Assembly (NCBI GenBank): GCA_903908245.1 | Contig: CAIVRE010000033.1 | Coordinates: 18,172 to 82,171 of the forward strand | Direction: 5' to 3' | Length of the DNA stretch: 64,000 nucleotides | Origin: Candidatus Omnitrophota bacterium | GTDB lineage: Bacteria > Omnitrophota > Gorgyraeia > Zapsychrales > Fredricksoniimonadaceae | Shown here: in pieces, positions 1,806 through 46,764 of the stretch | Position numbering within the stretch: position 1 is the first letter of the stretch | How the letters are laid out: the number at the start of each line of letters is the position of its first letter | Program-made: the position numbers and the translations under genes | Notes under the pieces: model-generated | Told to the model about the DNA's origin: nothing | Database searches by the model: none | What the model saw: the letters and a program-made list of their open reading frames with translations, nothing else

Positions 1806-3488
1806 TTACTTGCGTTTGGCAACATTTTTCAGGAACGCCTCCAGGCTGTAAACAATAGGAAGCGTTACGGTTATCTCATCTTTCTTGATACTGGCCGGAA
1901 AAGCGCTGTAGGGCGCGAGGGTCTGGGCTGTATTGACAGCATCCTGGTCAAACACATCATACCCCGAACTTTCTTTAACAAACACATCCCGCAGGCTTCC
2001 ATCCTTGCGGATGACCAGCGCAAGCCTCACTGTGCCCTGCCAGCGATTTTCCTGCGCTTCATAAGGATAAGCAATGGACGAAGAGACCTTCTGCTGCACC
2101 AGCTCGGCATACGGCTTAAGGTCCGGCGATATGGTCACCGGAACATTCGCCGCGTTCTTCACAATAACGGGCAGCCGCACATCGTTGCGGCCGGCCGCCA
2201 GCTGGATCTGTTCGTCCGTATTGACCCTGGTCCTGAAATTATTCCTGACAACCGGCGCCGGGACCGGGAGCGGAGCAGGCTCTTCCGCCTTCTTGACGCT
2301 CTTAAGGATCGTGGGCGTGATCGAAATGACCACTTCCGTTTCTCCATTCCCCGTCGGAAGCGATGTATTGCGGAACAAGGCGCCGATCAACGGGATCTTG
2401 CTTATGAACGGAACCCGTTTAACGACCACATCCGAACGTTTTTTGATCATCCCCGCGAGCACGATCGTCTGCTTGTCATTCAAATAAAGCTGGGTCTGTG
2501 CCGTACGCGTAATGAACGCCACGTCACCATTCGAAGAGTTGGCACCATCAATGTCGCTGATCTCGACGTTCAATAAAAGGTCCACTTTCCCGTCTTTAAT
2601 GGTCGGAGTGGCCCCCATGCTGACGCCGTAAGATTTGAATGTCGTCTGGCCCGTCGTACCCGTCGTTGTCGTTACCGTGGTCTTGATCGGGACCTCCCCG
2701 CCAACGAGGAACGTCGCTTCTTTGCCGCTTTTGACGACCAGGCGCGGCTTGGACAGGATCTGCCCCTTCCCTTCCTGGATCAGGGCGTTGACCTTCGCCA
2801 GCAATTCGGGAGACCGGTTGAAATCCCCGATCTTAAAAAGGTCTTTGGTTTTTCCCGTTTGCGGAGGCATGGTCTCCGTGAACGAGATCGTATCGTTCCA
2901 TGCAATGCCCAATTCTTTGCTTAAGGTCGTGGAGAGCTCAGTGATCTGCATATCCAGCTGGATCATATCCTGGATCTCTTCTTTTTTCACAAGATTCAGG
3001 ACACTGCCCTGGAACAGGTCCGCGACCGAATTCACCGCCGGCAATTTGTCTTCCGGAACGGTCCCGGACAGCATCACCTTGCCTTCCGGGTCATTCTGCT
3101 CAACAATGACCCCGGTCACATTGGAACTGGCCAGGATCGTCTGGACCCTGGATTTGATAAGCCCCAGATCTTCCGCCAGGACACGGACAATGAACGAACG
3201 CTTGCCGCTCTCATCCCAAAGAAAGACCACCGTCTGTCCGGGCTGCTGTCCAACAATAACAACCTGGCCCGGCTTGGCATCGGAGATATCCACAATATTC
3301 GGATCCGTGACCGAAACCCGCTGCAATTCTTTGGCCGGGATCGTATACACATCGCCCTTGAGCATCTGCACCTCTTCAAAGACCCCAGATTCCGCCGATG
3401 CGCGGGGAACGGGGACCATCATCAAACAGATGGCCAGCAACAGACAAAGGCTTTTCTTCATAGCTCTCACCATTCTGTTAATGTGCAT
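1806..3488 (-). CDS. cpaC: Tad pilus secretin (CpaC/RcpA-like) with an extra C-terminal TonB-C domain.
   Basis: 560-aa ORF. It has an N-terminal signal peptide and a BON/secretin-N-like region. A secretin core follows (GGEVPIKTT...VVKRVPFISKIPLIGALFRNTS...ETEVVISITPTIL), then a Pro-rich linker (EEPAPLPVPAPVV), then YPYEAQENRWQGTVRLALVIRKDGSLRDVFVKESSGYDVFDQDAVNTAQTLAPYSAFPA, which matches the TonB C-terminal domain consensus. Confidence 0.8.
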   Translation of the reverse strand: MHINRMVRAMKKSLCLLLAICLMMVPVPRASAESGVFEEVQMLKGDVYTIPAKELQRVSVTDPNIVDISDAKPGQVVIVGQQPGQTVVFLWDESGKRSFIVRVLAEDLGLIKSRVQTILASSNVTGVIVEQNDPEGKVMLSGTVPEDKLPAVNSVADLFQGSVLNLVKKEEIQDMIQLDMQITELSTTLSKELGIAWNDTISFTETMPPQTGKTKDLFKIGDFNRSPELLAKVNALIQEGKGQILSKPRLVVKSGKEATFLVGGEVPIKTTVTTTTGTTGQTTFKSYGVSMGATPTIKDGKVDLLLNVEISDIDGANSSNGDVAFITRTAQTQLYLNDKQTIVLAGMIKKRSDVVVKRVPFISKIPLIGALFRNTSLPTGNGETEVVISITPTILKSVKKAEEPAPLPVPAPVVRNNFRTRVNTDEQIQLAAGRNDVRLPVIVKNAANVPVTISPDLKPYAELVQQKVSSSIAYPYEAQENRWQGTVRLALVIRKDGSLRDVFVKESSGYDVFDQDAVNTAQTLAPYSAFPASIKKDEITVTLPIVYSLEAFLKNVAKRK

Positions 3489-3491
3489 CGA

Positions 3492-4358
3492 TCAAAGTTC
3501 CTTTCCCCCGCGGAAGATCTGGATATAAGGCTTTGTCTCCTGAACATTCTCGGTCTCGACCTTAAGCTCGGGTTTTTTACCACCCTCTTCCCCATTATCC
3601 GACAGCTTGATATCCGCGCCGCTGTTTTCCAGCACATATTCCCCCAGAGTCGACCAGTTCGCCGCAGGGATCATGGTGCGCCCTTTTTCCATCGGCGTAC
3701 GCAGCGCCAATTCAAGATTTCCATTCTGCTCGGCAAACGCCAGCAGCCCCGCTTCCTGAGGATCAACCGCAAAGGTCACCTTCAGGTCCTTTTCGCCTTG
3801 CTGCGCATCATACGCCCCGGGCTCATCAATGTTCGTATTGATCGCCAGGACCTGCAGATTCTGAAAGATCATGGCGGTCACTTTTTCCTTGGGATTCAGC
3901 TTCTTGCCTGTGGGCATATCCAGATGCGCGATCACATCCACAAAATCTCCGGGATTCAGCAATCCGCCGACCGCGCCCAGCGACTTAAGCTCCACCGTGA
4001 TCGCGCGCTTGCCTGACGGCGTCCGCAGTGCAAGCGACGGCTTTTTTTTCACCACCGCAGCTGCCGCCGCCCCGGTATCTCCCTTTTGAGCAACAGCCGC
4101 CCTGGCGGCGTCCTCCGCGGCTTTCGAGGCGCTCGCCTGGACCTCGGCGATCTTCTGGTTCAAAAGGGCAAGATCCTGCTCATACTGGACCTTGTTCGTT
4201 GCCTGGGCCTTTTCATACTGGATCGCCAGCTTGCCCGTTTCCTCGTTGACCTTCGAAGAAACATAACTTCCAACAAGGGCTGACGCAATGATCCCTGCCG
4301 CAACCGCAAAAACAATGACAATGATCTGTTTTTTATTTTCCAGATTCGGCAATGCCAT
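3492..4358 (-). CDS. cpaB: Flp pilus assembly protein CpaB/RcpC (SAF domain).
   Basis: 288 aa with an N-terminal TM helix and a coiled-coil. The SAF-like segment is RAITVELKSLGAVGGLLNPGDFVDVIA. It sits immediately upstream of the secretin in the canonical tad order. Confidence 0.7.
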   Translation of the reverse strand: MALPNLENKKQIIVIVFAVAAGIIASALVGSYVSSKVNEETGKLAIQYEKAQATNKVQYEQDLALLNQKIAEVQASASKAAEDAARAAVAQKGDTGAAAAAVVKKKPSLALRTPSGKRAITVELKSLGAVGGLLNPGDFVDVIAHLDMPTGKKLNPKEKVTAMIFQNLQVLAINTNIDEPGAYDAQQGEKDLKVTFAVDPQEAGLLAFAEQNGNLELALRTPMEKGRTMIPAANWSTLGEYVLENSGADIKLSDNGEEGGKKPELKVETENVQETKPYIQIFRGGKEL

Positions 4359-6473: not shown

Positions 6474-7280
6474 CTAATTAAGCTTTTTATATCCGGGGAA
6501 CATCCGGCGAAAACGCGCAGGCGCTCGATGATCAAGCCCGGCATAAAGGATCTCTTCTTTGTCATTGGAGGCCTGCGCAAGAATGCGGCCCCATGGGTCA
6601 ACGATCAGGCTCTGCCCCCAGCTTTGCGTCCCGTCGGAATTAATGCCAGCCTGCGCCGGTGCCAGCACATAACTGAAGGTCTCGACCGCCCGGGCGCGCA
6701 CCAGAAGCTCCCAATGCGCCTTGCCGGTCGTATATGCAAAAGAGGCCGGAACGGTAAAAAGGTTCGCTCCGCGCCGGGCATAATGATCGTAAATCCCGGG
6801 GAAACGCACATCAAAACACAACGACATCCCCAGCGTAAAATCTTCAACAATGGCCATGGCCGTATGAATGCCGGGGTTAAAAATATCGGCCTCGCGTATT
6901 TCACCTGGCCCCAGGCGGATATGAAAAAGGTTGTTCTTCCGGTAAGTCGCCTTGACTTTTCCATCCGGCCCAAGCAGAACGGACGTGTTATACGCCCGGC
7001 CTTTGGTGCGGGTTTTCTCGTAGATCGATCCCAAAAGAATATGCGCTTTGGCTTTGCGGCCAAGCGCGGCAAACGCGCTTACCGTCGGACCATTCACCGG
7101 TTCAACGACCTGCTCCACGCTTGCTTTTGTCTTCAGTGGCCCTCGAAAATAAAAATACTCCGGCAAACAAACGAACCGGGCCTTGTTCTCCAAGGCTTTA
7201 CGTGTGAAATACAGGGCCTTGTTGATATTATTTTCTTTATCCGGCCCGCTGCTCATCTGAATAACAGCGACTTTCATCAT
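6474..7280 (-). CDS. Carbon-nitrogen hydrolase family protein (Nit/omega-amidase-like).
   Basis: 268 aa, MMKVAVIQM...CLPEYF...[10 protein letters not shown], with catalytic-triad-like E/K/C spacing typical of the nitrilase superfamily. Confidence 0.75.
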
Positions 7281-7307
7281 TTTCCCTCCCCTTCATTAAT
7301 TCTTCTT

Positions 7308-7342
7308 GACGGAGCGGTTCGAAAAAATATAATAGTGACACT
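7308..7342 (+). promoter_or_regulatory. Sigma70-like promoter for tRNA-Glu.
   Basis: TTGACG, 16-17 nt spacer, TATAAT, about 15 nt upstream of the tRNA 5' end. Confidence 0.5.
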
Positions 7343-7356
7343 TTAAAGCCAATTTC

Positions 7357-7430
7357 GACCTCATCGTCTAGTCTGGTCAGGACGCGAGCTTTTCAAGCTT
7401 GCAACGCGGGTTCAAATCCCGCTGAGGTCG
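7357..7430 (+). tRNA. tRNA-Glu (anticodon UUC).
   Basis: Cloverleaf folded by hand. Acceptor GACCTCA/TGAGGTC; D-arm TCTAGTCTGGTCAGGAC; anticodon stem CGAGC/GCTTG with loop TTTTCAA (U33, anticodon TTC, A37); T-arm GCGGG-TTCAAAT-CCCGC; discriminator G. No CCA is encoded. Confidence 0.85.
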
Positions 7431-7585
7431 CTATATTTTTCCCCAAACTAACCCGCAGATTTGAACCCGCGTAACTAAATGCACTAAGTGTTCTAATGGC
7501 TGCTTCCATAAGATTATTCCAGACAAGCAGCCATTCCACGAGACTGCTATCTTACATTGGGCGAGTGAAATCCCGCTGAGGTCGC
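7431..7585 (+). mobile_element. tRNA-Glu 3'-end-linked miniature element. The left end is a 14-nt inverted copy of the tRNA T-arm, the centre is an 8-bp-stem hairpin, and the right end is an 18-nt perfect direct repeat of the tRNA 3' end.
   Basis: AAATCCCGCTGAGGTCGC occurs at 7414-7431 (inside the tRNA) and again at 7568-7585. GATTTGAACCCGCG at 7458-7471 is the reverse complement of tRNA positions 7405-7418. The internal hairpin is GGCTGCTT (7499-7506) paired with AAGCAGCC (7525-7532). Confidence 0.55.
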
Positions 7586-7595
7586 CATATATAAA

Positions 7596-7626
7596 AAGAC
7601 CCGGAATATGCTCCGGGTTTTTTATT
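7596..7626. terminator. Bidirectional rho-independent terminator, serving the tRNA-Glu/element transcript on the plus strand and gyrA on the minus strand.
   Basis: AAAAAG-ACCCGGA-atatgc-TCCGGGT-TTTTTTATT. The stem is flanked by an A-run on one side and a T-run on the other. Confidence 0.7.
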
Positions 7627-7796
7627 ATAAAAAAATCTCCTCAATTAAACCGTCTGAAAGAATTACATAGTTCGCCCTCGTCCTCCTTGCAGCGAGAGCG
7701 AGCCTGACGCCCGAGCGAAGGTCGGCCACGGCGGTCCGACCGAGCGTTCGGCAAAGGAACAATGACAGTCTTTAATAAAAGAATAGCCCTGAAACT

Positions 7797-10268
7797 TTAG
7801 GCCTCTTCCCCGCCCTCGTCCTCATCCTTCGCGATAACATTCGCGATCGACGACACCGTATCGTTCGCTTCCAGCGAAACAAGCCTGACGCCCATAGCGC
7901 TGCGGCCCGTTAAACGCACATCCTTTGGCATACAGCGGATAATAGCGCCCTGCTTGGTGACGGTCATGATCTCGTCATCTTCATGAACGGTCAAAACCCC
8001 AATAACCACGCCGTTCTTGTCGGCGCACTTGAAGTTAATGATCCCTTTGCCACCGCGCGACTGAATACGGTAATCCTCAAAATTCGACCGCTTCGCAAAA
8101 CCAAGAGATGAACATGTCAACAGCGTGTTCCCGGTCTTGCCAACATCCGGCGGGAATACGATCATCCCGACCACAATGTCATTTTTGGCCAAATTGATCC
8201 CGCGCACACCCATGGCCGAACGGCCGGTATCACGGATCTGGTCATCCAGGAACCGCAGGGACTGTCCCAGTTTCGTCGCCAGAAGGACATTCTGCTTCCC
8301 CTCAATGAGCGACACTCCGATCAGGTCGTCCCCTTTTTCCAGTGTGATCCCGATGATCCCGCCCTTGCGCGGATTACTGTAAGCCGACAACCGGGTCTTT
8401 TTAATGGTCCCCTTGGCTGTCGCCATGATAAGCGACTGTTCATCATTGAACTCCTTGACCGCAACAACCGCCCGGATGCTCTCGTCATTCGCGAACGACA
8501 ACAGGTTCACAATGGCCTTGCCCTTGGCCTGCCGCGAGGCAACAGGGATCTCGTAGACTTTAAGCCAGCGGACCATCCCCTTGTTGGAAAAGATCAGCAA
8601 ATAATCTTTGGACGAAGCCACAAAGAGGCGCTCCACAAAATCCTCTTCCTTGGTGGTCATGCCCATCACTCCCTTGCCGCCGCGCTTCTGTTTGCGGTAA
8701 GCATGCACCGGCGTACGTTTGATATAGCCGGTATTGGTGATCGTGATGGCCATGTCCTCGTCGGCGATCAGATCTTCCATCTCGATGTCTTCGGCCTTGC
8801 CGGCGATCTCGGTACGGCGCTCATCGCCGAATTTCAACCTCAGGTCCGCCAGCTCTTTTTTAATGATCGTATCCACTCTTTTCGGATCAGCCAGGATAGC
8901 GCGGTATTCATCGATCGCCTTAAGAAGGCCTTCATACTCCTCCTCGATCTTGTCGCGCTCGAGGCCTGTAAGCTTCTGCAGCTGCATTTCAAGGATAGCC
9001 TGCGCCTGGATCTCTGTCAGGCCGAACTTCTTGATCAGCGCCGTCTTCGCCTCGGGGGTTGACGGCGACTTGCGGATGACCGCAATGATCTCTTCAATAT
9101 TCTTAAGCGCAATGCGCAGCCCTTCGAGGATATGCGCACGGCGAAGAGCTTTGTCCAGGTCGAACTGCGTGCGGCGCCGCACCACGATACGCCGATGCTC
9201 GATATAATGCGCCATCAGTTGCTTTAAATTCAATACGCGCGGATTATTATTCACCAGTGCAAGATTAATAATGCCGAACGTGGTTTCCAGCTGTGTGTGT
9301 TTGAACAGATAATTCAGGACGATCTGCGCCTCAACATCCCGGCGCAATTCAATAACAACGCGAATACCGTCCTTGTCGGACTCGTCACGAATATCCGTAA
9401 TGCCGTCCACGCTCTTGTTCTGTACCAGGTCCGCAATATTCGCGACCAGATTGGCTTTATTGACCTGATACGGAAGCTCGGTAATAATGATGAAATCTTT
9501 GCCGTTCTTCTGCTGCTCAATGGCCGCACGTGCACGCAGGATGATCTTGCCGCGGCCGGTCGTATACGCGTCCTTGATCCCTTCCCGCCCGCAGATAATG
9601 CCCGCCGTCGGAAAATCCGGCCCTTTAACGAATTTGGTCAATTCCTTGATCTCACAGTCCGGATTTTCGATCAAATGAACGATCCCGTCCACGATCTCGT
9701 TCAAATTGTGCGGCGCCATGTTCGTCGCCATCCCGACCGCGATGCCGCTCGACCCGTTCACCAGCAGATTGGGCAATATCGCCGGCAGGATCACCGGTTC
9801 TTCCAGGGTGGAATCAAAATTCGGGGAATACTCCACGGTCCCTTTATCAATATCCGCGAGCACCGCTTCCGAAACGGCCGCCATCCTCGCCTCGGTATAA
9901 CGCATCGCCGCGGCTGAATCGCCGTCAATAGAGCCGAAGTTGCCCTGTCCGTCGATCAAAGGATACCGCAGCGAGAACTCCTGGACCATGCGCACCATCG
10001 TGTCATACACGGCAGAATCGCCGTGGGGATGATATTTACCCAACACTTCACCGACGATACGCGCGCTTTTCTTGTATGGCTTGCTGTGCTCGAGATGAAG
10101 CTCTTTCATCGCATAAAGGATGCGGCGGTGAACGGGCTTGAGCCCGTCGCGCACATCCGGCAGCGCGCGCCCGACAATAACGCTCATCGAGTACGCAAGA
10201 TAGGAACGCTTCATTTCCTCTTCAATAGGGACCGGAACGATCCGTTCTTTTTTTGTAAAATCTTTCAT
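7797..10268 (-). CDS. gyrA: DNA gyrase subunit A.
   Basis: 823 aa with the N-terminal GyrA signature ...[21 protein letters not shown]...[16 protein letters not shown]... and the C-terminal beta-pinwheel repeats. Confidence 0.95.
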
Positions 10269-10357
10269 GTTAATTCTTCCTTATTATTATCGGCTCGGGA
10301 CACATAGAATTTTCACCAACGTTTACGCTGGAAAATTCAATATGTCCCGCGCACTGC

Positions 10358-13074
<2,717 letters not shown>

Positions 13075-13078
13075 GCGA

Positions 13079-14167
13079 TTATAATCTCATAGGTAAAGCC
13101 AAATATAAATAATTTTCTTTACGAATTACACAGGGCTTGTCCGTTCCCAAAAATTCAATGTCGATCGATTCGTCATTGGTATTTTTAAGCACCTCGATCA
13201 TATATTGCGGATTGAACCCGATCACCATTTCCGGCCCGCTATGAACGATCTTGATCTCTTCGCGCGATTCTCCCACATCCGGTGTTGTTTTGGAAACGAT
13301 CAGCTTGTCCTGAAAAACCTCGAATTTGATCGCCTGAAAATCCGGCGTGGCCAGTAAATTGGCCCGGCGGATAGCCGCCAGGAATTCCTGTGTATTCAAA
13401 TTGATCTTGGGGGCTGTCATTTTCGGGATGACCTGTAAATAATTCGGAAAATCTCCTTCAATGATCCTGGTAGCGATCATGACCCCGTTAATATCGAACA
13501 ATACCTGATTGGCGCCCCCCACAAAGATCACTTCCCCGTCATCTTTTAAATTCCGGTTGATCTCGTTCACCGCCTTGATCGGCAAAATGACGGAAACGTC
13601 TTTAGTGACCGCCTGGATCAGCGGTTTTTCGATCTTGGCCAAACGCCTGCCATCTGTTGCCACCAGCCGGAGAATATCTTTTTGTACTTCCATTAAAACT
13701 CCGTTTAATACATACCGGGATTCCTCATGGGATACGGCAAATGATGTTAAACGGAACATTTCCTTGAGATCCGCCTGTTTAACACGGATGATCTCTTTAT
13801 CCTTGAATTCAGGGAATTTGGGGAATTCTTCTTTAGGCAATCCTAATAATTTGATCCGGCAATTTTTTCCTTCGATCTCGATCTGATTATTTTTACGTGC
13901 ATGAATAATAATATCTCCGGAAGGTAATTCACGGATCACCTCCGAAAATCTTTTGGCAGGGATCGTGATCGCTCCATCCGTAATAATATTGACCGGGATC
14001 TCGCAGGAAATACCAATATCAAGGTCTGTAGTATACAAACGTAAAGTATCTTTTTTTGTTTCCAGCAGCATATTGGATAAAATAGGCAATGTTGCTTTTG
14101 GAGAAACAACATTTTGAACGATCTGGATACCGCTTAACAGGTCATCTTTGGAAAGTTTCACTTGCAT
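13079..14167 (-). CDS. dnaN: DNA polymerase III beta sliding clamp.
   Basis: 362 aa, MQVKLSKDDLLSGIQIVQNVVSPKATLPILSNMLLE..., three-domain clamp architecture immediately downstream of dnaA. Confidence 0.9.
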   Translation of the reverse strand: MQVKLSKDDLLSGIQIVQNVVSPKATLPILSNMLLETKKDTLRLYTTDLDIGISCEIPVNIITDGAITIPAKRFSEVIRELPSGDIIIHARKNNQIEIEGKNCRIKLLGLPKEEFPKFPEFKDKEIIRVKQADLKEMFRLTSFAVSHEESRYVLNGVLMEVQKDILRLVATDGRRLAKIEKPLIQAVTKDVSVILPIKAVNEINRNLKDDGEVIFVGGANQVLFDINGVMIATRIIEGDFPNYLQVIPKMTAPKINLNTQEFLAAIRRANLLATPDFQAIKFEVFQDKLIVSKTTPDVGESREEIKIVHSGPEMVIGFNPQYMIEVLKNTNDESIDIEFLGTDKPCVIRKENYLYLALPMRL

Positions 14168-14230
14168 ACGTTAACACTCCCGGTTTACTTCTATTTTTAT
14201 ATAAAAAATCAGTAATAGTAACAGTAGGCC

Positions 14231-14239
14231 TGTGGATAA
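14231..14239 (-). promoter_or_regulatory. DnaA box (TTATCCACA, here on the minus strand) in the dnaA-dnaN intergenic region.
   Basis: TGTGGATAA at 14231-14239 is the exact consensus 9-mer. Confidence 0.55.
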
Positions 14240-14319
14240 TTCTAATAAAAACAAAAACAATTGTAAATACTGTACTTAGGGACAATTGGCTTGTTACTGG
14301 AACAATAGTATCCCGTGTA

Positions 14320-15663
14320 TTACTGGTTTAATATCTGGAACAACTTTTCTATACTATATTTAATTTCAGCAGAATTGTTAATATCTTCTTCGATTTTTTT
14401 ATAAGAATGCATAACTGTTGTGTGGTCTTTTCCAAAAGCGTTGCCGATCTCCGGCAATGAATGACGGGTCAATTTCCGGATCAGATACATGGCGATCTGC
14501 CTTGGAAGCGCGATGTTTTGGGTCCGTTTCTTGGATTTCAGGTCATTGATCGTGATCTTGTAGTGTTCGGCAACAACTTGCTGGATCATTTCAACGCTGA
14601 CGATCTTGATACTGCCCTGGATCATGTCTTTTAGAACGGTTTTGGCCAGGTTCAGGGAAACCGGCTTTTCCTCTAATAAGGAGCTGGCGACCACGCGGAT
14701 CATTGCGCCTTCCAGTTCTCGGATGTTGGTTTTGATCTGTTCCGCGATAAAATAAATAATATCATCGGGGACTTTGACTTTTTCCAGTTCGGTTTTTTTA
14801 CGCAGGATCGCGACCCGTGTTTCCAGGTCCGGCGGTTGAATGTCTGTTGTCAGCCCCCAGCAGAAGCGCGTGACAAGGCGGTCTTCGATCCCTGAAAGTT
14901 CTTTGGGCGGACGGTCGGAAGAAATAATGATCTGTTTATGGTTGTTATGGAGGTCATTGAACGTATGAAAGAATTCTTCCTGCATGGTCGGGCTTTTGGA
15001 AATGAACTGGATATCATCGATCAGAAGAACGTCGATATGACGGAATTTTTTCCGGAAGGCGCCGGTGGATTTGTTCTGAATGGCGCCGATCAGCTCGTTG
15101 GCGAATTGTTCGGATGAAACATAGGCACAGGTTTTATCGTTGGTTTCAAGGATGTAGTTGGCGATGGACTGCATCAGGTGGGTTTTTCCCAGCCCGGATT
15201 GTCCGTAGATAAAAAGGGGATTATAGGCTTTGGCCGGGTCATTGGCGACCGCCCGGCTGGCCGCGTAGGCCATGCGGTTGGAATTCCCGACGACAAAATT
15301 ATTGAAGGTAAAGCGTGGCTGCAGGTTCAGCGTTCTGGTCTTTTTGGCGGCGGCGTATTCAGGGGTGCTGGCCGTTGTTACGGCGGAAGGCCTCTCCCCT
15401 GCCGCGCAGAGCAGGTCTTTTCTTATGTGGATATCAACAACAATATTCCTGCCGGTTTCTTCACGCAACGCGGCGCCAATGATATCCAGGTAATGTTCGA
15501 CCATCCAGTTCTTGAAAAATTCGTCGGGCGTGATGAGGACAAGATGGTCCTGGGCCTGTTCCGCGATATTCAGGTGAACGAACCATGTTGTATAGGCATG
15601 GTCACCTATTTTTGTTTTGATCGAAGATTGGGCATTTTGCCATGCCTGGAGCAAGCTCGTCAT
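14320..15663 (-). CDS. dnaA: Chromosomal replication initiator DnaA.
   Basis: 447 aa with an AAA+ domain (GQSGLGKTHLMQSIANY Walker A, LLIDDIQF Walker B) and the C-terminal DNA-binding domain ...IAMYLIRKLTRHSLPEIGNAFG.KDHTTVMHS. Confidence 0.95.
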   Translation of the reverse strand: MTSLLQAWQNAQSSIKTKIGDHAYTTWFVHLNIAEQAQDHLVLITPDEFFKNWMVEHYLDIIGAALREETGRNIVVDIHIRKDLLCAAGERPSAVTTASTPEYAAAKKTRTLNLQPRFTFNNFVVGNSNRMAYAASRAVANDPAKAYNPLFIYGQSGLGKTHLMQSIANYILETNDKTCAYVSSEQFANELIGAIQNKSTGAFRKKFRHIDVLLIDDIQFISKSPTMQEEFFHTFNDLHNNHKQIIISSDRPPKELSGIEDRLVTRFCWGLTTDIQPPDLETRVAILRKKTELEKVKVPDDIIYFIAEQIKTNIRELEGAMIRVVASSLLEEKPVSLNLAKTVLKDMIQGSIKIVSVEMIQQVVAEHYKITINDLKSKKRTQNIALPRQIAMYLIRKLTRHSLPEIGNAFGKDHTTVMHSYKKIEEDINNSAEIKYSIEKLFQILNQ

Positions 15664-16000
15664 AGGGTCCGTCTGGGTGTGGAATACTGTAGAGATACAA
15701 ACTGTTTAAAACAAACAACTTAGGTCTTAGAGCAATTCTTCTTAACAGGTTATCCACAGCCAAGAGTTCTTATTATCATGTCCATCTTGTGCTGTATGAG
15801 GAGAATATCCGGCCTCCCCGAGAATGGTGGTCATTATAACAAAGCACTCTTTGAATGCAACTTTAATTTTTTTGGCGCTTTTCTTTTGACGGGTGTCAAG
15901 GCGGACTGGGCCTGTTTCCGGCCGCTAGAAAGCTGTCCTGTTTTTTCAGGCAAGGCCTCGTCGATTTTTTAAAAACTTTTAAGGTTGCGAAGCTTGCTTG
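15664..16000. promoter_or_regulatory. Probable oriC: the dnaA upstream region with a consensus DnaA box and an AT-rich unwinding element, at the point where gene orientation switches from minus to plus.
   Basis: TTATCCACA at 15749-15757. The AT-rich tract is ...CAACTTTAATTTTTTTGGCGCTTTTCTTTTGAC... Every gene to the left is on the minus strand and every gene to the right is on the plus strand. Confidence 0.6.
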
Positions 16001-16030
16001 ACTTCCCAAAAACCTATGTTATAATTTCCA
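16000..16030 (+). promoter_or_regulatory. Promoter of the rpmH operon.
   Basis: CTTGACT, 17 nt spacer, TATAAT, ending about 5 nt upstream of the rpmH RBS region. Confidence 0.55.
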
Positions 16031-16034
16031 AATT

Positions 16035-16172
16035 ATGAAAAAGACCTTAAAGACTCCTACAAAGATCAAGGGTAAAAAGATACACGGGTTTCGCAAGCGG
16101 ATGTCGACCGCTGACGGGCGTAAAGTCCTTCAGAGCCGTCGCGCCAAGGGCCGTAAACGTTTGACGAAGTGA
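16035..16172 (+). CDS. rpmH: 50S ribosomal protein L34.
   Basis: Hand translation gives [45 protein letters not shown], 45 aa. It is too short for the supplied ORF track. Confidence 0.9.
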
Positions 16173-16269
16173 CCCTTTGTTCGATCGGCGTATTAACATT
16201 GTTTTTTCATGTTGATAATTCCGGTCGGGCTGTTTGGCATTCGTTTAAATTAACAGGCTTTATTGGTGT

Positions 16270-16479
16270 ATGATGTGGATACTGACGCGGCTTATCTTTG
16301 TTTATCAAGGCGTAAGCCGTTTTTTTCTGCCTAAAGCCTGCCGTTTTCATCCTTCTTGTTCCCAGTATGCTGTTGAGGCGCTTCAAAAGCATGGGGTTAT
16401 TAAGGGGTTGTGGATGTCTATATGCCGCATTTGCCGTTGTTCACCGTTAACTAAAGGCGGGTATGATCCCGTAAGGTAG
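16270..16479 (+). CDS. yidD: Membrane protein insertion efficiency factor YidD.
   Basis: 69 aa ...[19 protein letters not shown]...G.DPV. Confidence 0.85.
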
Positions 16480-16485
16480 TAATTT

Positions 16486-18075
16486 ATGGAAAAAAGACTT
16501 TTTTTAGCTGTTGGGCTTTCATTGTTGGTTGTTTTTGTTTTTCAGTCATTTTTTTCTCCAAAAAACGTCAGAGTTGCCACTGTTCAAACAACGGCTATTG
16601 GCAGTGAAGAAGGTCGTTTCCCCTCGATATCTTCGAAATTATCATCGGATGGCGCAGCTGAAAAGCTGGATTTTAAGCCGGAAACATTCTCTGTTAACGC
16701 GGGAAAGTTCAATTTTGAAGTGTCTAATAATGGTGGATCCATTACAAATATTTATTTAAATGATTATAAATATCATTTTCCTATTAAAGGTTTAGCTGAT
16801 ATTAAAGCTTTTCAGGGAATGCCGTTCTCTTATATAGATACTGGAAGCGCATCGTTTTCTTTAGTATCTAAGGATAAAAATCTGGATATTGAAAAAAGTG
16901 TTTCTGTAAAAAATTATAATATAGTCATTAAGTATAAGATCAACAATATTTCAAATGTTGTTCAAAACATTGAACTTACAGCGAAACCATTCGACATAGA
17001 TTTGTCCAGACTGGACATTAATGTTCTGAAATCAGATTGGACATTATTTGAATATTCTTTTAAAACTGACAAAAAAGTTGAAAGAAAAGAACATGTTAAT
17101 AATTTTAATGAAAAATGGAATAAAGAAGAATCAAAGATTTTTGATTGGATGGCCTTTAGAGATCGCTATTTTGTAACAATTGTAGAACCCAAAGAGTCCT
17201 TTAAAGGATATAGTTCAAAATATGTTGGAGATAAAGAGCTTTCTTTTTTAGCAACGCTGCCTTCATTAAGTATTCAGCCAGGAAAAGTAGAGGAGTATTC
17301 GTTTACGGTTTTTTGCGGACCGCAAAAGCTTGATATTTTAAAAGAAGCGAATCCTGGTTTTGAAAAAGTGATGGTTTTTAGCAGCTGGGGATGGCTGGAC
17401 ATGATCGCAAAGGGCATTTATTGGGTTTTGGGTGCAATTCATAAGATATTGCCAATTTGGGGGTTATGTATTATTTTTGTTAGTCTTCTTGTTTATGGCG
17501 CTATGTATCCGTTGACGTTAAAAAGTATGATGTCAATGAAAAAGATGCAAGCTCTTCAACCAAAAATGACACAACTTAAAGAAAAATATAAAGATAATGC
17601 TGAAAAGTTGAATAAGGAGATCGTGGAGCTTTATCGGGTTAACAATGTTAATCCGGTTAGCGGCTGTTTGCCAATGTTGCTTCAAATGCCAATATTTGTT
17701 GGTCTTTATCAAGTGTTGTGGCGCTCTATTTATTTTAGGGGAGAGCCTTTTTTGTGGATGAAAGATCTTTCTATGCCGGATCATTTGGTTAAATTTCCAA
17801 TAACTATCCCTTTTCTTGGGGAATATTTTAATTTATTACCACTTTTGATGATGGGCATTATGTTGTTGCAACAAATGATCACGATCAAGAATTCCGTCGG
17901 AGGAGATCCGGAGCAGCAGCAACAACAAAAAATGATGGCGATCTTTATGCCTATAATGCTTGGTGTTATGTTTTATAATTTCGCCAGCGGGCTTAATTTG
18001 TATTTTGTTGTTTTTTATTCCCTTTCAGCTTTGAGTCAGTGGAATATTACACGAGATATTAAAGCGACGGTTTAA
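16486..18075 (+). CDS. yidC: Membrane protein insertase YidC.
   Basis: 529 aa with an N-terminal TM helix, a periplasmic domain, and the conserved C-terminal 5-TM core (...NPVSGCLPMLLQMPIF.GLY...). Confidence 0.9.
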   Translation: MEKRLFLAVGLSLLVVFVFQSFFSPKNVRVATVQTTAIGSEEGRFPSISSKLSSDGAAEKLDFKPETFSVNAGKFNFEVSNNGGSITNIYLNDYKYHFPIKGLADIKAFQGMPFSYIDTGSASFSLVSKDKNLDIEKSVSVKNYNIVIKYKINNISNVVQNIELTAKPFDIDLSRLDINVLKSDWTLFEYSFKTDKKVERKEHVNNFNEKWNKEESKIFDWMAFRDRYFVTIVEPKESFKGYSSKYVGDKELSFLATLPSLSIQPGKVEEYSFTVFCGPQKLDILKEANPGFEKVMVFSSWGWLDMIAKGIYWVLGAIHKILPIWGLCIIFVSLLVYGAMYPLTLKSMMSMKKMQALQPKMTQLKEKYKDNAEKLNKEIVELYRVNNVNPVSGCLPMLLQMPIFVGLYQVLWRSIYFRGEPFLWMKDLSMPDHLVKFPITIPFLGEYFNLLPLLMMGIMLLQQMITIKNSVGGDPEQQQQQKMMAIFMPIMLGVMFYNFASGLNLYFVVFYSLSALSQWNITRDIKATV

Positions 18076-22950: not shown

Positions 22951-22983
22951 TGTAGGGGCGGCCCGATGGGTCGCCCGGCGATG
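22951..22983. repeat. Small GC-rich hairpin repeat, copy 1 of 3.
   Basis: TGTAGGGGCGGCCCGATGGGTCGCCCGGCGA: stem GGGCGGCCC/GGGTCGCCC with loop GAT. Near-identical copies are at 31853-31883 and 33934-33964. Confidence 0.6.
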
Positions 22984-23039
22984 TGACGAAACGACCCGAT
23001 GGCTTTGGGTTTTTTTGCTGTGTCCCTGGGAAACATTGT

Positions 23040-23334: not shown

Positions 23335-23412
23335 GGACCCGTAGCTCAGTTTGGTTAGAGCGCTTCCTTGACATGGAAGAGGTCACAAGTTCGAGTCTTG
23401 TCGGGTCCACCA
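23335..23412 (+). tRNA. tRNA-Val (anticodon GAC).
   Basis: Acceptor GGACCCG/CGGGTCC; anticodon stem CTTCC/GGAAG with loop TTGACAT; T-arm ACAAG-TTCGAGT-CTTGT; CCA is encoded. Confidence 0.85.
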
Positions 23413-23418
23413 TTTATA

Positions 23419-23451
23419 AAAAAGCCTTCCGGTTTTCGGAAGGCTTTTTTA
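23419..23451 (+). terminator. Rho-independent terminator after tRNA-Val.
   Basis: AAGCCTTCCG-gtttt-CGGAAGGCTT followed by TTTTTTATT. Confidence 0.8.
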
Positions 23452-23455
23452 TTGG

Positions 23456-23581
23456 CAGACTCGACAAGACGAGAACGGAGCCCCGCTGGACGCGACGAAT
23501 AGGAGCGTCCTATAGGCGGGGCGGATGGCCGACCCGGAAGGAGCGAAGCGACTGGAGGGCACCGAGTCTTGTCGGGTCCAC
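23456..23581 (+). mobile_element. tRNA-Val 3'-end-linked miniature element. The left end is an imperfect inverted copy of the tRNA 3' end, the middle is a conserved structured core of about 90 nt, and the right end is a 19-nt perfect direct repeat of the tRNA 3' end.
   Basis: CGAGTCTTGTCGGGTCCAC occurs at 23392-23410 (inside the tRNA) and at 23563-23581. The reverse complement of the left end (23456-23476) matches the tRNA 3' region at 16 of 21 positions. The core (GGAGCCCCGC...GACGAATAGGA...CCTATAGGCGGGGCGGATGGCCGACCCG.AAGGAGC...GACTGGAGGGC.CCGA) is shared with the element after tRNA-Gln. Confidence 0.6.
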
Positions 23582-23662
23582 TGGCGCCATCTGCATGTCC
23601 CCTTGTTTTCTTTCTTTTTATAGTAAATACTTAATAGGTTATATGGTGGATACCAACAGGGG

Positions 23663-31798: not shown

Positions 31799-31852
31799 TG
31801 TTGTTTTGGGCGAGGCGCCGCCTCGCCCCTACTCGCATGTACGAGTGTAGGG

Positions 31853-31883
31853 GCGACCCGATGGGTCGCCCGGTGATTAAACG
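31853..31883. repeat. Small GC-rich hairpin repeat, copy 2 of 3.
   Basis: TGTAGGGGCGACCCGATGGGTCGCCCGGTGA, a perfect 9-bp stem. It is preceded by two further hairpins (GGGCGAGGCG/CGCCTCGCCC and CCCCTACTCG...CGAGTGTAGGGG). Confidence 0.6.
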
Positions 31884-31894
31884 ATACGGATCTT

Positions 31895-33964: not shown

Positions 33965-34117
33965 ATAGACGATTTTTCTGCTGTGCTCGTCAGGGGGTTT
34001 GTAATATTGAACCAATACAATATTACAGGGGATCGTTGTCTATCTGGCTCGTGGGCCAATAGCTTTTCCCCACCTGTTAAGCAGGTTCGATACGCGGACT
34101 TCCAACGGCATAAGCGG

Positions 34118-34152
34118 AATTTGTTTAAACCCGTGTAGTTAATTCTACACGG
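34118..34152 (+). terminator. Rho-independent terminator about 200 nt downstream of pheT.
   Basis: AAACCCGTGTAG-ttaatt-CTACACGGGCTTTTT. Confidence 0.75.
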
Positions 34153-40525: not shown

Positions 40526-40532
40526 TTTGGTA

Positions 40533-40660
40533 CCTGCCCCGCTAGGATTCGAAGGAGCCCCGCCGGGTCCGACGAATAGGAGGACCCTATAGGCGGGGCG
40601 GATGGCCGACCCGAAAGGAGCCCCGAAGGGCGACTGGAGGGCGCCGAACGCCTAGCGGGG
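40533..40660 (+). mobile_element. tRNA-Gln 3'-end-linked miniature element. The left end is a perfect 21-nt inverted copy of the tRNA 3' end, the middle is the conserved structured core, and the right end is a 10-nt direct copy of the tRNA 3' end followed by a T-run.
   Basis: CCTGCCCCGCTAGGATTCGAA (40533-40553) is the exact reverse complement of tRNA 40465-40485. The core (40554-40640) aligns with the tRNA-Val-linked core. CCTAGCGGGG at 40651-40660 equals tRNA 40472-40481, and the T-run is at 40664-40671. Confidence 0.6.
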
Positions 40661-40781
40661 GATGTTTTTTTTGTGGTAGATGGCTATTGTAGAAAATCAT
40701 GGTAGAATATACTAGTATTTCGACATTCTCTATAAAAATGATACGTAGGTTTTTGAAACGTGTTTGGGGCAGGGAGGCTGT

Positions 40782-46578: not shown

Positions 46579-46764
46579 CACGGAAAGGTTTATCTGTGAG
46601 CAATCAGATGATTTTCGGCAAAAGCCTCCGAAGATTTACGGCAAAATGTAGGCATCATCGACTCGCCTTTGTAAGACTTGAAGCGAGGGCGATGTGCGCT
46701 TTACATTTTGACGTAAACTGAAGGAGGCGGCGAAAATCATCGCGAACAGATAAACCTTTCCGTG
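46579..46764. repeat. 186-bp element bounded by perfect 19-bp inverted repeats with a nested inner inverted repeat (long hairpin; MITE or structured-RNA candidate).
   Basis: CACGGAAAGGTTTATCTGT at 46579-46597 pairs with ACAGATAAACCTTTCCGTG at 46746-46764. Inner pair: GATGATTTTCG (46607-46617) with CGAAAATCATC (46731-46741). Additional complementary segments: GCCTCC with GGAGGC. Confidence 0.6.

Follow-up and report, generated by a model that had tools for sequence, protein, structure and literature searches.

A conserved 154-nt insert with a duplicated tRNA 3′ end behind tRNA-Glu of an Omnitrophota bacterium: a candidate miniature insertion at the T-loop

Islander-type islands and prophages such as mycobacteriophage Ms6 at tRNA-Ala, which tyrosine integrases insert into tRNA genes, are close counterparts of the locus described here, in that a direct repeat of the tRNA 3′ end is found just downstream of an intact tRNA gene (PMC4383910, PMC1762012). 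The T-loop is a usual place of integrase crossover in tRNA genes (PMC4383910, PMC1762012): T-loop or T-stem attP sites were found for 1836 of 3919 Islander islands (PMC4383910), and strand exchange of Ms6 falls in the 7-nt T-loop (PMC1762012). Here we analyze an insert that follows the tRNA-Glu(UUC) gene in a 64,000-nt stretch of a Candidatus Omnitrophota genome (assembly GCA_903908245.1, contig CAIVRE010000033.1, positions 18,172 to 82,171), the whole of which is referred to as the window. As in Islander islands and Ms6, an identity block that starts in the T-loop region is repeated, a CCA and a terminator are brought along, and both empty and occupied sites exist among relatives. However, those elements comprise kilobases with integrase and cargo, whereas the unit behind tRNA-Glu is 154-184 bp long and has neither. 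The Ms6 core is 26 bp and includes the T-stem 5′ strand, whereas the block at tRNA-Glu is 18 nt, begins at tRNA position 57 and lacks that strand. The insert also differs by the apparent constraint on its core and by an antisense T-arm segment. By the criteria used for Islander footprints, the repeat and the empty sites are present, an integrase is missing, and the extent of the identity block is atypical. We file the insert as a tRNA-gene integration footprint, but a miniature, gene-less and conserved one.

The streptococcal cis-mobilizable elements (CIMEs) are att-flanked elements without recombination genes; they are kilobase-sized, derived from recognizable integrative and conjugative elements (ICEs) and found beside them. 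By analogy, the att-type repeats and lack of an integrase at tRNA-Glu could reflect a recombinase supplied in trans, although CIMEs have an adjacent parent ICE whereas the unit of ~150 bp has no known parent element. A different kind of precedent is 3′ETS-leuZ of E. coli, a small RNA from a tRNA 3′ external transcribed spacer. A putative tRNA-Glu trailer RNA would, like it, be released from the precursor trailer and end at the operon terminator, but 3′ETS-leuZ has no counterpart of the tRNA-end duplication or of the antisense T-arm segment. In layout, the insert is like CTX, one of the integrative mobile elements exploiting Xer (IMEX), the attP of which has two target-like sites in opposite orientation, ~90 bp apart, that stay on the chromosome, and which has no recombinase of its own (PMC3089051). 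The opposite sites at tRNA-Glu, 7458-7472 and 7568-7585, are 95 nt apart. The target is dif in the one and a tRNA T-loop in the other; moreover, the CTX sites anneal in single-stranded DNA as the stem of a forked hairpin, which rebuilds the duplex target, whereas the tRNA-Glu copies are not complementary (~5 bp at most), and in predicted folds the partner of the inverted copy is the tRNA.

The last 18 nt of tRNA-Glu, AAATCCCGCTGAGGTCGC, occur at 7414-7431 and again exactly (18/18) at 7568-7585, with a start-to-start spacing of 154 nt and 136 bp between the copies. The direct repeat reaches 23 nt if one mismatch is allowed, a C versus T right after the 18-nt identity. When 7300-7700 was shuffled 200 times, no direct repeat longer than 10 nt arose. 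The locus is organized as follows.

7306-7333, plus strand: sigma-70-type promoter of tRNA-Glu (TTGACG, 16-nt spacer, TATAAT; score 11/12)
7357-7431, plus strand: tRNA-Glu(UUC); the gene end reads G-C-T-A and CCA is not encoded
7414-7431, plus strand: R1, 3′ end of the tRNA gene itself, starting at position 57 in the T-loop and ending one base beyond the discriminator
7432-7457, plus strand: AT-rich spacer 'a', containing AACCCGC, which recurs at 7464-7470
7458-7472, plus strand: inverted (antisense) tRNA copy, 15 nt, complement of tRNA positions 46-60
7462-7541, plus strand: conserved core block E (TGAACCCGCGTAACTAAATGC, hp1, TTCT, hp2, CCACGA), ~84% identical to the sister species
7481-7491, plus strand: small hairpin hp1, stem GCACU/AGUGU here and GCCCU/AGGGU in the sister locus L004
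7495-7535, plus strand: hairpin hp2, perfect 11-nt arms 7495-7505 and 7525-7535 with a 19-nt loop
7542-7567, plus strand: variable 3′ third of the core, ~50% identical between species, with a conserved GTG at its end
7568-7585, plus strand: R2, second tRNA 3′-end copy; CA follows, so that CCA is encoded (7585-7587)
7599-7624, both strands: intrinsic terminator, stem ACCCGGA/TCCGGGT and a T run, facing the convergent gyrA

The tRNA was called by both ARAGORN and Rfam (tRNA, 63 bits). The inverted copy pairs ACGCGGGTTCAAATC (7404-7418) with GATTTGAACCCGCGT (7458-7472) and covers the variable loop, the T-stem 5′ strand and the T-loop; its last 11 nt, TGAACCCGCGT, are common to the window and the sister species. 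Spacer 'a' resembles other trailers only weakly and may be the 5′ half of a lost terminator. The conserved non-coding core of the insert amounts to ~105 nt; no reading frame is open across it in both species, and no small open reading frame (ORF) is conserved. Because the same sequence is present in three other assemblies of the same species (L001-L003), the insert is not an assembly artifact.

An initial annotation made from the letters alone had recognized the 18-nt duplicate, which the shuffles place far beyond chance, and the terminator after it, a G+C-rich hairpin with a T run. Its insert of 155 bp is real, with the unit being 154 nt from start to start; its 14-nt inverted T-arm copy at 7458-7471 is present but is 15 nt long, and the hairpin that it placed at 7499-7532 extends over 7495-7535 with perfect 11-nt arms. 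It had missed that the tRNA's own end reads G-C-T-A while the downstream copy, which the terminator follows, reads G-C-C-A.

Orthologous loci were fetched via the two flanking proteins, and the order CN-hydrolase, tRNA-Glu, gyrA is conserved. The tRNA-Glu promoter is kept at all of these loci in the locus alignment. The site is occupied in one relative, a sister species represented by the metagenome-assembled genome (MAG) ELA581 (GCA_037131245.1; loci L004, L005 and L011), with 74% identity to the window in CN-hydrolase and 96% in GyrA. The order in L004 is tRNA-Glu with an encoded CCA, a terminator, a 16-nt spacer, TGAACCCGCGT, the homologous core, AAATCCCGCTGGGGTCGC and a second terminator, and the repeats are spaced by 184 nt. 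The terminator at 7599-7624 of the window is homologous to the one directly after the tRNA in L004 and in L009. The site is empty, with no trace of the core, in six lineages (L006/L007, L009, L010, L016, L017 and L018-20, the last being L008 completed). A single R copy is present in the first five of these, and L018-20 are without a downstream copy. The closest further relatives by CN-hydrolase are L012 (76%) and L008 (69%), whose contigs stop 12-13 nt past the tRNA; the L012 contig ends at 12 nt, and the L008 locus was completed from the overlapping gyrA-side contigs L018-20. The GyrA tree groups the window tightly with L004 and the empty L018/L008, at 96-96.5% identity. Either there was a single gain of the insert after L008 had branched off, or a single gain was followed by a loss, or there were two gains. 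Given the empty sites in six lineages, we conclude that it is a lineage-specific insertion and not an ordinary trailer. The initial annotation had proposed this same-locus comparison and named a conserved longer pre-tRNA trailer, without empty-site alleles or other copies, as the outcome that would speak against integration; the relatives show empty sites instead.

The two cores align over ~105 nt at 75% identity, which breaks down into ~84% over the leading 80 columns and ~50% over the final 30. For a neutral calibration between the same two genomes we used third positions of identical four-fold-degenerate codons, which are 43% identical in CN-hydrolase and 55% in gyrA. Based on this difference, the 5′ two-thirds of the core would be either under constraint or recently acquired. 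In hp2, the two species have the same 9-11-bp stem around a 19-23-nt loop of ~50% identity, and the third pair of hp1 is A-U here and C-G in L004, one compensatory change; this suggests that both stems are retained, as far as two sequences can tell. R2 is perfect in both species and follows its own tRNA, with A in both copies here and G in both in L004. The A belongs to acceptor pair 5-68 of tRNA-Glu, which is C-G in every relative; the window alone changed it to U-A, and its R2 carries the matching A allele. The 25 nt directly upstream of R2 look neutral. R1 and R2 are either held identical by gene conversion or selection, or young. Since the core is conserved above neutral and R2 tracks the acceptor-stem change, the insert, judged from its sequence, is neither a decaying scar nor a passive footprint. 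The att footprint of integration proposed in the initial annotation is therefore partly supported, by the T-loop start and the empty sites, but not as a passive relic, and no integrase accompanies it.

Several further features were observed in the same intergenic region of the relatives. In L018, the empty-site relative closest by GyrA, a different hairpin (3740-3900, minus strand; arms ATCTTCAAGGTCCA and TGGACCCTGAAGAT, ~14 bp) stands in place of the insert. In L004, a PIN/MazE toxin-antitoxin pair and a pilin-like (N_methyl) gene lie at 2385-3627 between the insert and gyrA, outside both tRNA-end repeats. At 3844-3872 (minus strand) of the same locus, the T-loop TTCAAA and the trailer CCATATAAT make up a promoter-like site (10/12) that reads into the terminator and is probably fortuitous. 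Just 3′ of the gyrA stop, at 7668-7770 of the window (minus strand), is a GC-rich element of ~100 nt that is conserved with the sister species only and co-occurs with the insert. Only one copy occurs in the window, and a fold of the two sequences includes three compensatory pairs. None of the empty-site relatives has the element, and searches of Rfam (E<=10 at 7620-7810) and IMG/VR gave no match.

The core of the insert is present once in the 64-kb window. A search of 185,579 GTDB species, one genome each, with the exact pattern CTAATGGCTGC N15-45 GCAGCCATTCCAC, which the cores of both species have in common, gave the sister MAG as its sole match, once. The conserved 20-mer GAACCCGCGTAACTAAATGC had no match in IMG/VR. 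These distribution searches, by patterns and BLAST, need exact or near-exact matches, and diverged relatives would escape them. Comparison of the insert with the window and all fetched loci by blastn-short revealed no local source of the core. At gathering score, Rfam identified only tRNAs and 6S RNA in the whole window, and at E<=10 (Rfam 15) it found nothing beyond tRNA in 7300-7700 and 23400-23650. A multi-copy repeat or miniature inverted-repeat transposable element does not fit one copy in the 64-kb window, one in the whole sister MAG and none in other GTDB genomes. A pattern that combines inverted and direct tRNA-Glu pieces, TGAACCCGCG N75-105 AAATCCCGCTG, had two matches in IMG/VR, both in coding DNA without tRNAs, which we attribute to chance.

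The window contains a second family of small tRNA-flanking elements, located after tRNA-Val and tRNA-Gln, with a common core of ~90 nt. The Val and Gln cores are 88% identical over 68 nt. A metagenome scan added three more copies, for five in all.

23455-23585, window: Val/Gln-type locus after tRNA-Val (element at 23477-23563)
40528-40665, window: Val/Gln-type locus adjoining tRNA-Gln(CUG) (element at 40554-40645)
632-745 of L013, minus strand: copy ~90 nt after tRNA-Gln(UUG), yet with the 3′ end of a different tRNA
2842-2968 of L014, minus strand: copy after tRNA-Ser(UGA)
1876-1982 of L015, minus strand: copy behind a 3′ fragment of tRNA-Asp, which itself directly adjoins the C-terminus of a tyrosine-integrase-like ORF

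These cores are ~87-92 nt long, ~73-95% identical, and adjoin four or five different tRNAs. Their common fold has two domains and includes five compensatory pairs, and they have no Rfam match. A covariance model built from the five copies scores them at 97-116 bits and gives no match on the tRNA-Glu insert (7300-7700) even at E<=10. The tRNA-Glu core is thus from a different family, in agreement with the initial annotation. The similarity in layout that it also proposed is only superficial. The inverted copy of Val/Gln-type elements is complementary to the T-loop, the T-stem 3′ strand and the acceptor strand; it pairs with the direct copy, closing a stem around the core that mimics the T-stem/acceptor duplex of the tRNA gene; these elements therefore pass the annealing requirement of CTX. 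In contrast, the inverted (positions 46-60) and direct (57-74) copies at tRNA-Glu overlap by 4-5 nt only, and the inverted copy has no partner inside the insert. The two families are alike in lying directly after a tRNA, in having an inverted piece, a structured core of ~90-105 nt and no Rfam match, and in varying in presence between sister species. They differ in their unrelated cores, the stem-closing arms, and copy number, five for the Val/Gln type and one for the tRNA-Glu insert. In both families the direct copy starts at tRNA position 56/57, after GTT(C) of the T-loop (Glu; Val, Ser, Asp and Gln), and the inverted copy of the Val/Gln type ends at the complement of T54. The Val/Gln-type core was not found at either orthologous locus of the sister genome (tRNA-Gln, L021; tRNA-Val, L024), which indicates turnover of small tRNA-flanking elements between sister species. 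Duplicated tRNA ends are present at three of the four tRNA loci in the window, and the sister genome carries different ones.

Those of the sister genome (L024 3030-4050 and L021 2900-3100) include terminator-centered palindromes of 30-40 bp at tRNA-Cys, Leu, Val and Gln. Their outer end is the tRNA 3′ end, and the right arm mirrors the last bases of the tRNA and the native trailer. Two apexes have ATCCCGTAWGGGA in common, and further hairpins have a recurrent GCTCCG apex. The distance from tRNA-Cys to tRNA-Leu is 6 nt in the window and 130 nt in the sister genome. At 1985-2270 of L015 (minus strand), the tRNA-Asp 3′ fragment, from anticodon stem to CCA, comes after the C-terminal part of a tyrosine-recombinase-like ORF (...RYAHLS..., read by eye); a terminator and the Val/Gln-type element are next. 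The arrangement resembles one end of an island that had integrated at the anticodon loop, beside a native tRNA-flanking element.

The tRNA-Glu gene is flanked by a CN-hydrolase gene (6474-7280, minus strand) and by gyrA/gyrB (7797-12904, minus strand), and the protein homologues are annotated as Candidatus Omnitrophota MAGs. The window corresponds to the chromosomal origin region, with dnaA, dnaN, gyrB, gyrA, yidC and parAB. The GC skew turns at ~14-16 kb (14000-16500), and since this sign change is next to dnaA/dnaN, we place the replication origin inside the window. The tRNA-Glu gene lies on the plus strand at 7.3 kb, ~8 kb from the GC-skew turn, and its transcription runs head-on against replication, which is the case for none of its neighbors. 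The tRNA-Val and tRNA-Gln genes are co-directional with replication.

The reading that we prefer, though only tentatively, is that the insert is a miniature, non-autonomous insertion that arose by site-specific recombination at the tRNA-Glu T-loop and has been retained since. A small DNA element without a recombinase gene would have recombined with tRNA-Glu in or at the T-loop, presumably through a recombinase acting in trans. As with islands that target tRNA genes, the 18-nt attachment core would have been duplicated in this event, which would also have supplied or displaced a trailer consisting of CCA and terminator; the element would then have been kept in a small clade. The conserved hairpins and the antisense segment may be recognition features of the element, or may have been co-opted, and R1 and R2 would be kept identical by gene conversion or selection. 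An exact repeat far beyond chance, together with empty and occupied sites, supports this reading. The start at position 57, common to an unrelated core family, fits a fixed crossover point of the T-loop/T-stem attP kind, and a duplicated unit with CCA and terminator fits an element that restores the split tRNA gene. The absence of the Val/Gln core from both orthologous loci of the sister genome is consistent with small tRNA-flanking elements coming and going in the clade.

The trailers were also compared. The copy with CCA and a strong terminator is the distal one in the window and the proximal one in L004, and the CCA-bearing trailers of the two species are mutual best matches (score 48, z 10.6, against 31 for the pair in equivalent positions). 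The distal trailer of the window also matches the native trailer of the empty-site L009 (score 41). This asymmetry is as expected if a circular unit (core, tRNA end, CCA, terminator) integrated at different points, which we consider no more than suggestive. When we attempted to identify the native trailer from the empty-site relatives, their trailers proved AT-rich, terminator-like and mutually similar; the only strong link is that between the R2 trailer of the window, the R1 trailer of L004 and the trailer of L009, and comparisons with L018 were not significant.

A number of points weigh against an insertion of this kind. Circular permutation is a weak argument, since the four terminators are all similar. 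The two trailers of L004 are alike too (score 39), and the CCA difference is a single C/T change. There is only one copy per genome. The initial annotation had suggested looking for further copies of the core, and none was found beyond the sister species: in addition to the window and the GTDB genomes, the core pattern was not found in IMG/VR or JGI metagenomes, and blastn of the core had no match in 50,697 phage and 72,556 plasmid records. No integrase is located in or near the insert, and no integrase, transposase, reverse transcriptase or TnpB-like protein was identified among 20 window proteins (Pfam). A double-stranded circle of 154-184 bp is physically awkward, the identity block is without the T-stem 5′ strand of classical T-loop att cores, and the antisense T-arm segment is unexplained by integrase chemistry. 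Finally, the ~84% conservation of the core and the tracking of the tRNA allele by R2 are not predicted by the insertion model itself, and point to present function or homogenization. The feature is real and more than a scar.

The conservation would also be accounted for by a functional RNA made from the tRNA-Glu trailer, which we consider unlikely; as a statement on what the insert does now, it is compatible with an origin by insertion. Once the tRNA is cleaved off at its 3′ end, a trailer RNA of ~190 nt would be left, comprising the 15-nt T-arm antisense, two hairpins and a 3′ end that resembles a tRNA and has CCA. Such an RNA could slow tRNA maturation in cis by folding in an alternative way, or act in trans as 3′ETS-leuZ does. 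Because the window has no terminator between the tRNA and the insert, the whole would be one transcript from the promoter to the terminator at 7599-7624. The sister species, however, has a good terminator at that point and no promoter-like site before the insert. The well-conserved 5′ 80 nt, the hp2 stem that is kept around a varying loop and the compensatory change in hp1 are all as expected of an RNA, although with two sequences the covariation is anecdotal and there is no Rfam match. Since R2 follows the acceptor-stem change, the 5′ strand of the tRNA can pair with R2 or R1, and the minimum-energy folds predicted for read-through transcripts of both species use acceptor/R2 and T-arm/antisense helices (z -7.8 and -8.7), but low folding energies follow automatically from the repeats. 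Likewise, a terminator follows R2 in both species but may just serve the convergent genes. The position of the encoded CCA and terminator at R2, and not R1, in the window is also what an intervening sequence would show, in which the true tRNA 3′ end is R2 and 7414-7567 are removed from the T-loop. We give this hardly any credence: the upstream copy is already a complete, high-scoring tRNA, ARAGORN with introns of 0-300 nt predicts the plain tRNA only, Rfam shows no group I intron or other ribozyme, and in the sister species CCA and terminator follow R1.

Two other explanations concern the origin of the insert. In a replication or repair template switch at the tRNA terminator, the nascent strand would copy part of the tRNA inverted, gain filler, and re-copy the 3′ end from the T-loop, resulting in an A, A-inverted, A pattern. 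The sister tRNA 3′ ends mirrored across terminators (Cys, Leu, Val and Gln), once with a further direct copy, imply that inverted and direct re-copying of tRNA ends is common in the clade, and the head-on orientation of tRNA-Glu near the GC-skew turn is in favor as well. We nevertheless regard this origin as distinctly doubtful, given that the ~90-nt filler has no source in the 64-kb window or any fetched locus and, unlike junk, is conserved between species. Furthermore, the L004 spacer as a mirror extension of the tRNA 3′ part is not significant (p ~0.5), and the perfect 23-bp outer mirror at tRNA-Gln of the window has inside it an 8-nt bubble without complementarity, a structure that one fold-back copy would not produce. 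Alternatively, a large island or prophage that had entered tRNA-Glu in the common ancestor could have eroded, its interior being deleted to leave attL, ~135 bp and attR. A regenerated tRNA with a displaced 3′ fragment is the classic signature of such elements (PMC4383910), the sister intergenic region holds the toxin-antitoxin and pilin-like genes, and the GC-rich element by gyrA is common to both occupied species and in no empty-site relative. On the other hand, a functionless scar is expected to be at 43-55% identity with a decayed R2, whereas the core is at ~84% over 80 nt and R2 is perfect and tracks the tRNA. The accessory genes of L004 stand outside both repeats, and exact-pattern and BLAST searches of GTDB, JGI metagenomes, IMG/VR, phages and plasmids retrieved no related full-length element. 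A remnant of this kind seems improbable to us.

If the miniature insertion is what it appears to be, tRNA attachment sites would be usable by gene-less elements two orders of magnitude below known islands. That would be relevant to the emergence of tRNA genes as integration hot spots and to the lower size limit of mobile DNA. Should the core instead function as an antisense trailer RNA for its own tRNA, this would represent a new kind of tRNA maturation control. The tRNA-end duplications here and the different ones in the sister genome point to a clade-wide, undescribed remodeling of tRNA 3′ flanks, in a phylum, Omnitrophota, that is known almost only from metagenomes. The broader pattern, in which unrelated small structured cores combine copies of the neighboring tRNA 3′ end, the same T-loop anchor and turnover between sister species, may deserve more attention. 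A more far-reaching and rather unlikely possibility is that the clade hosts gene-less DNA elements of ~150-190 nt that insert at tRNA T-loops, with at least two unrelated cores and re-programmable targeting. The Val/Gln arms would then fold single-stranded into a duplex mimic of the cognate T-stem/acceptor, as the CTX phage mimics dif, and a host-encoded recombinase would integrate them. The tRNA-Glu insert would be a second, retained member, with its hairpins and antisense T-arm segment serving recognition. Such elements, if real, would be the smallest site-specific integrative elements known, and their targeting would be re-programmable by the copied tRNA sequence.

Three features elsewhere in the window were recorded in passing. 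A 6S RNA gene is located at 33972-34124 (Rfam RF00013, 64 bits). A 43-nt direct repeat (TGTAGGGGCGGCCCGATGGGTCGCCCGG...), 86% identical between its copies, occurs at 22951-22993 and 31846-31888, directly upstream of tRNA-Cys and of pheT, respectively. Finally, an intergenic 26-nt inverted repeat (46579-46604 and 46739-46764) has arms that are 88% complementary and 134 nt apart.

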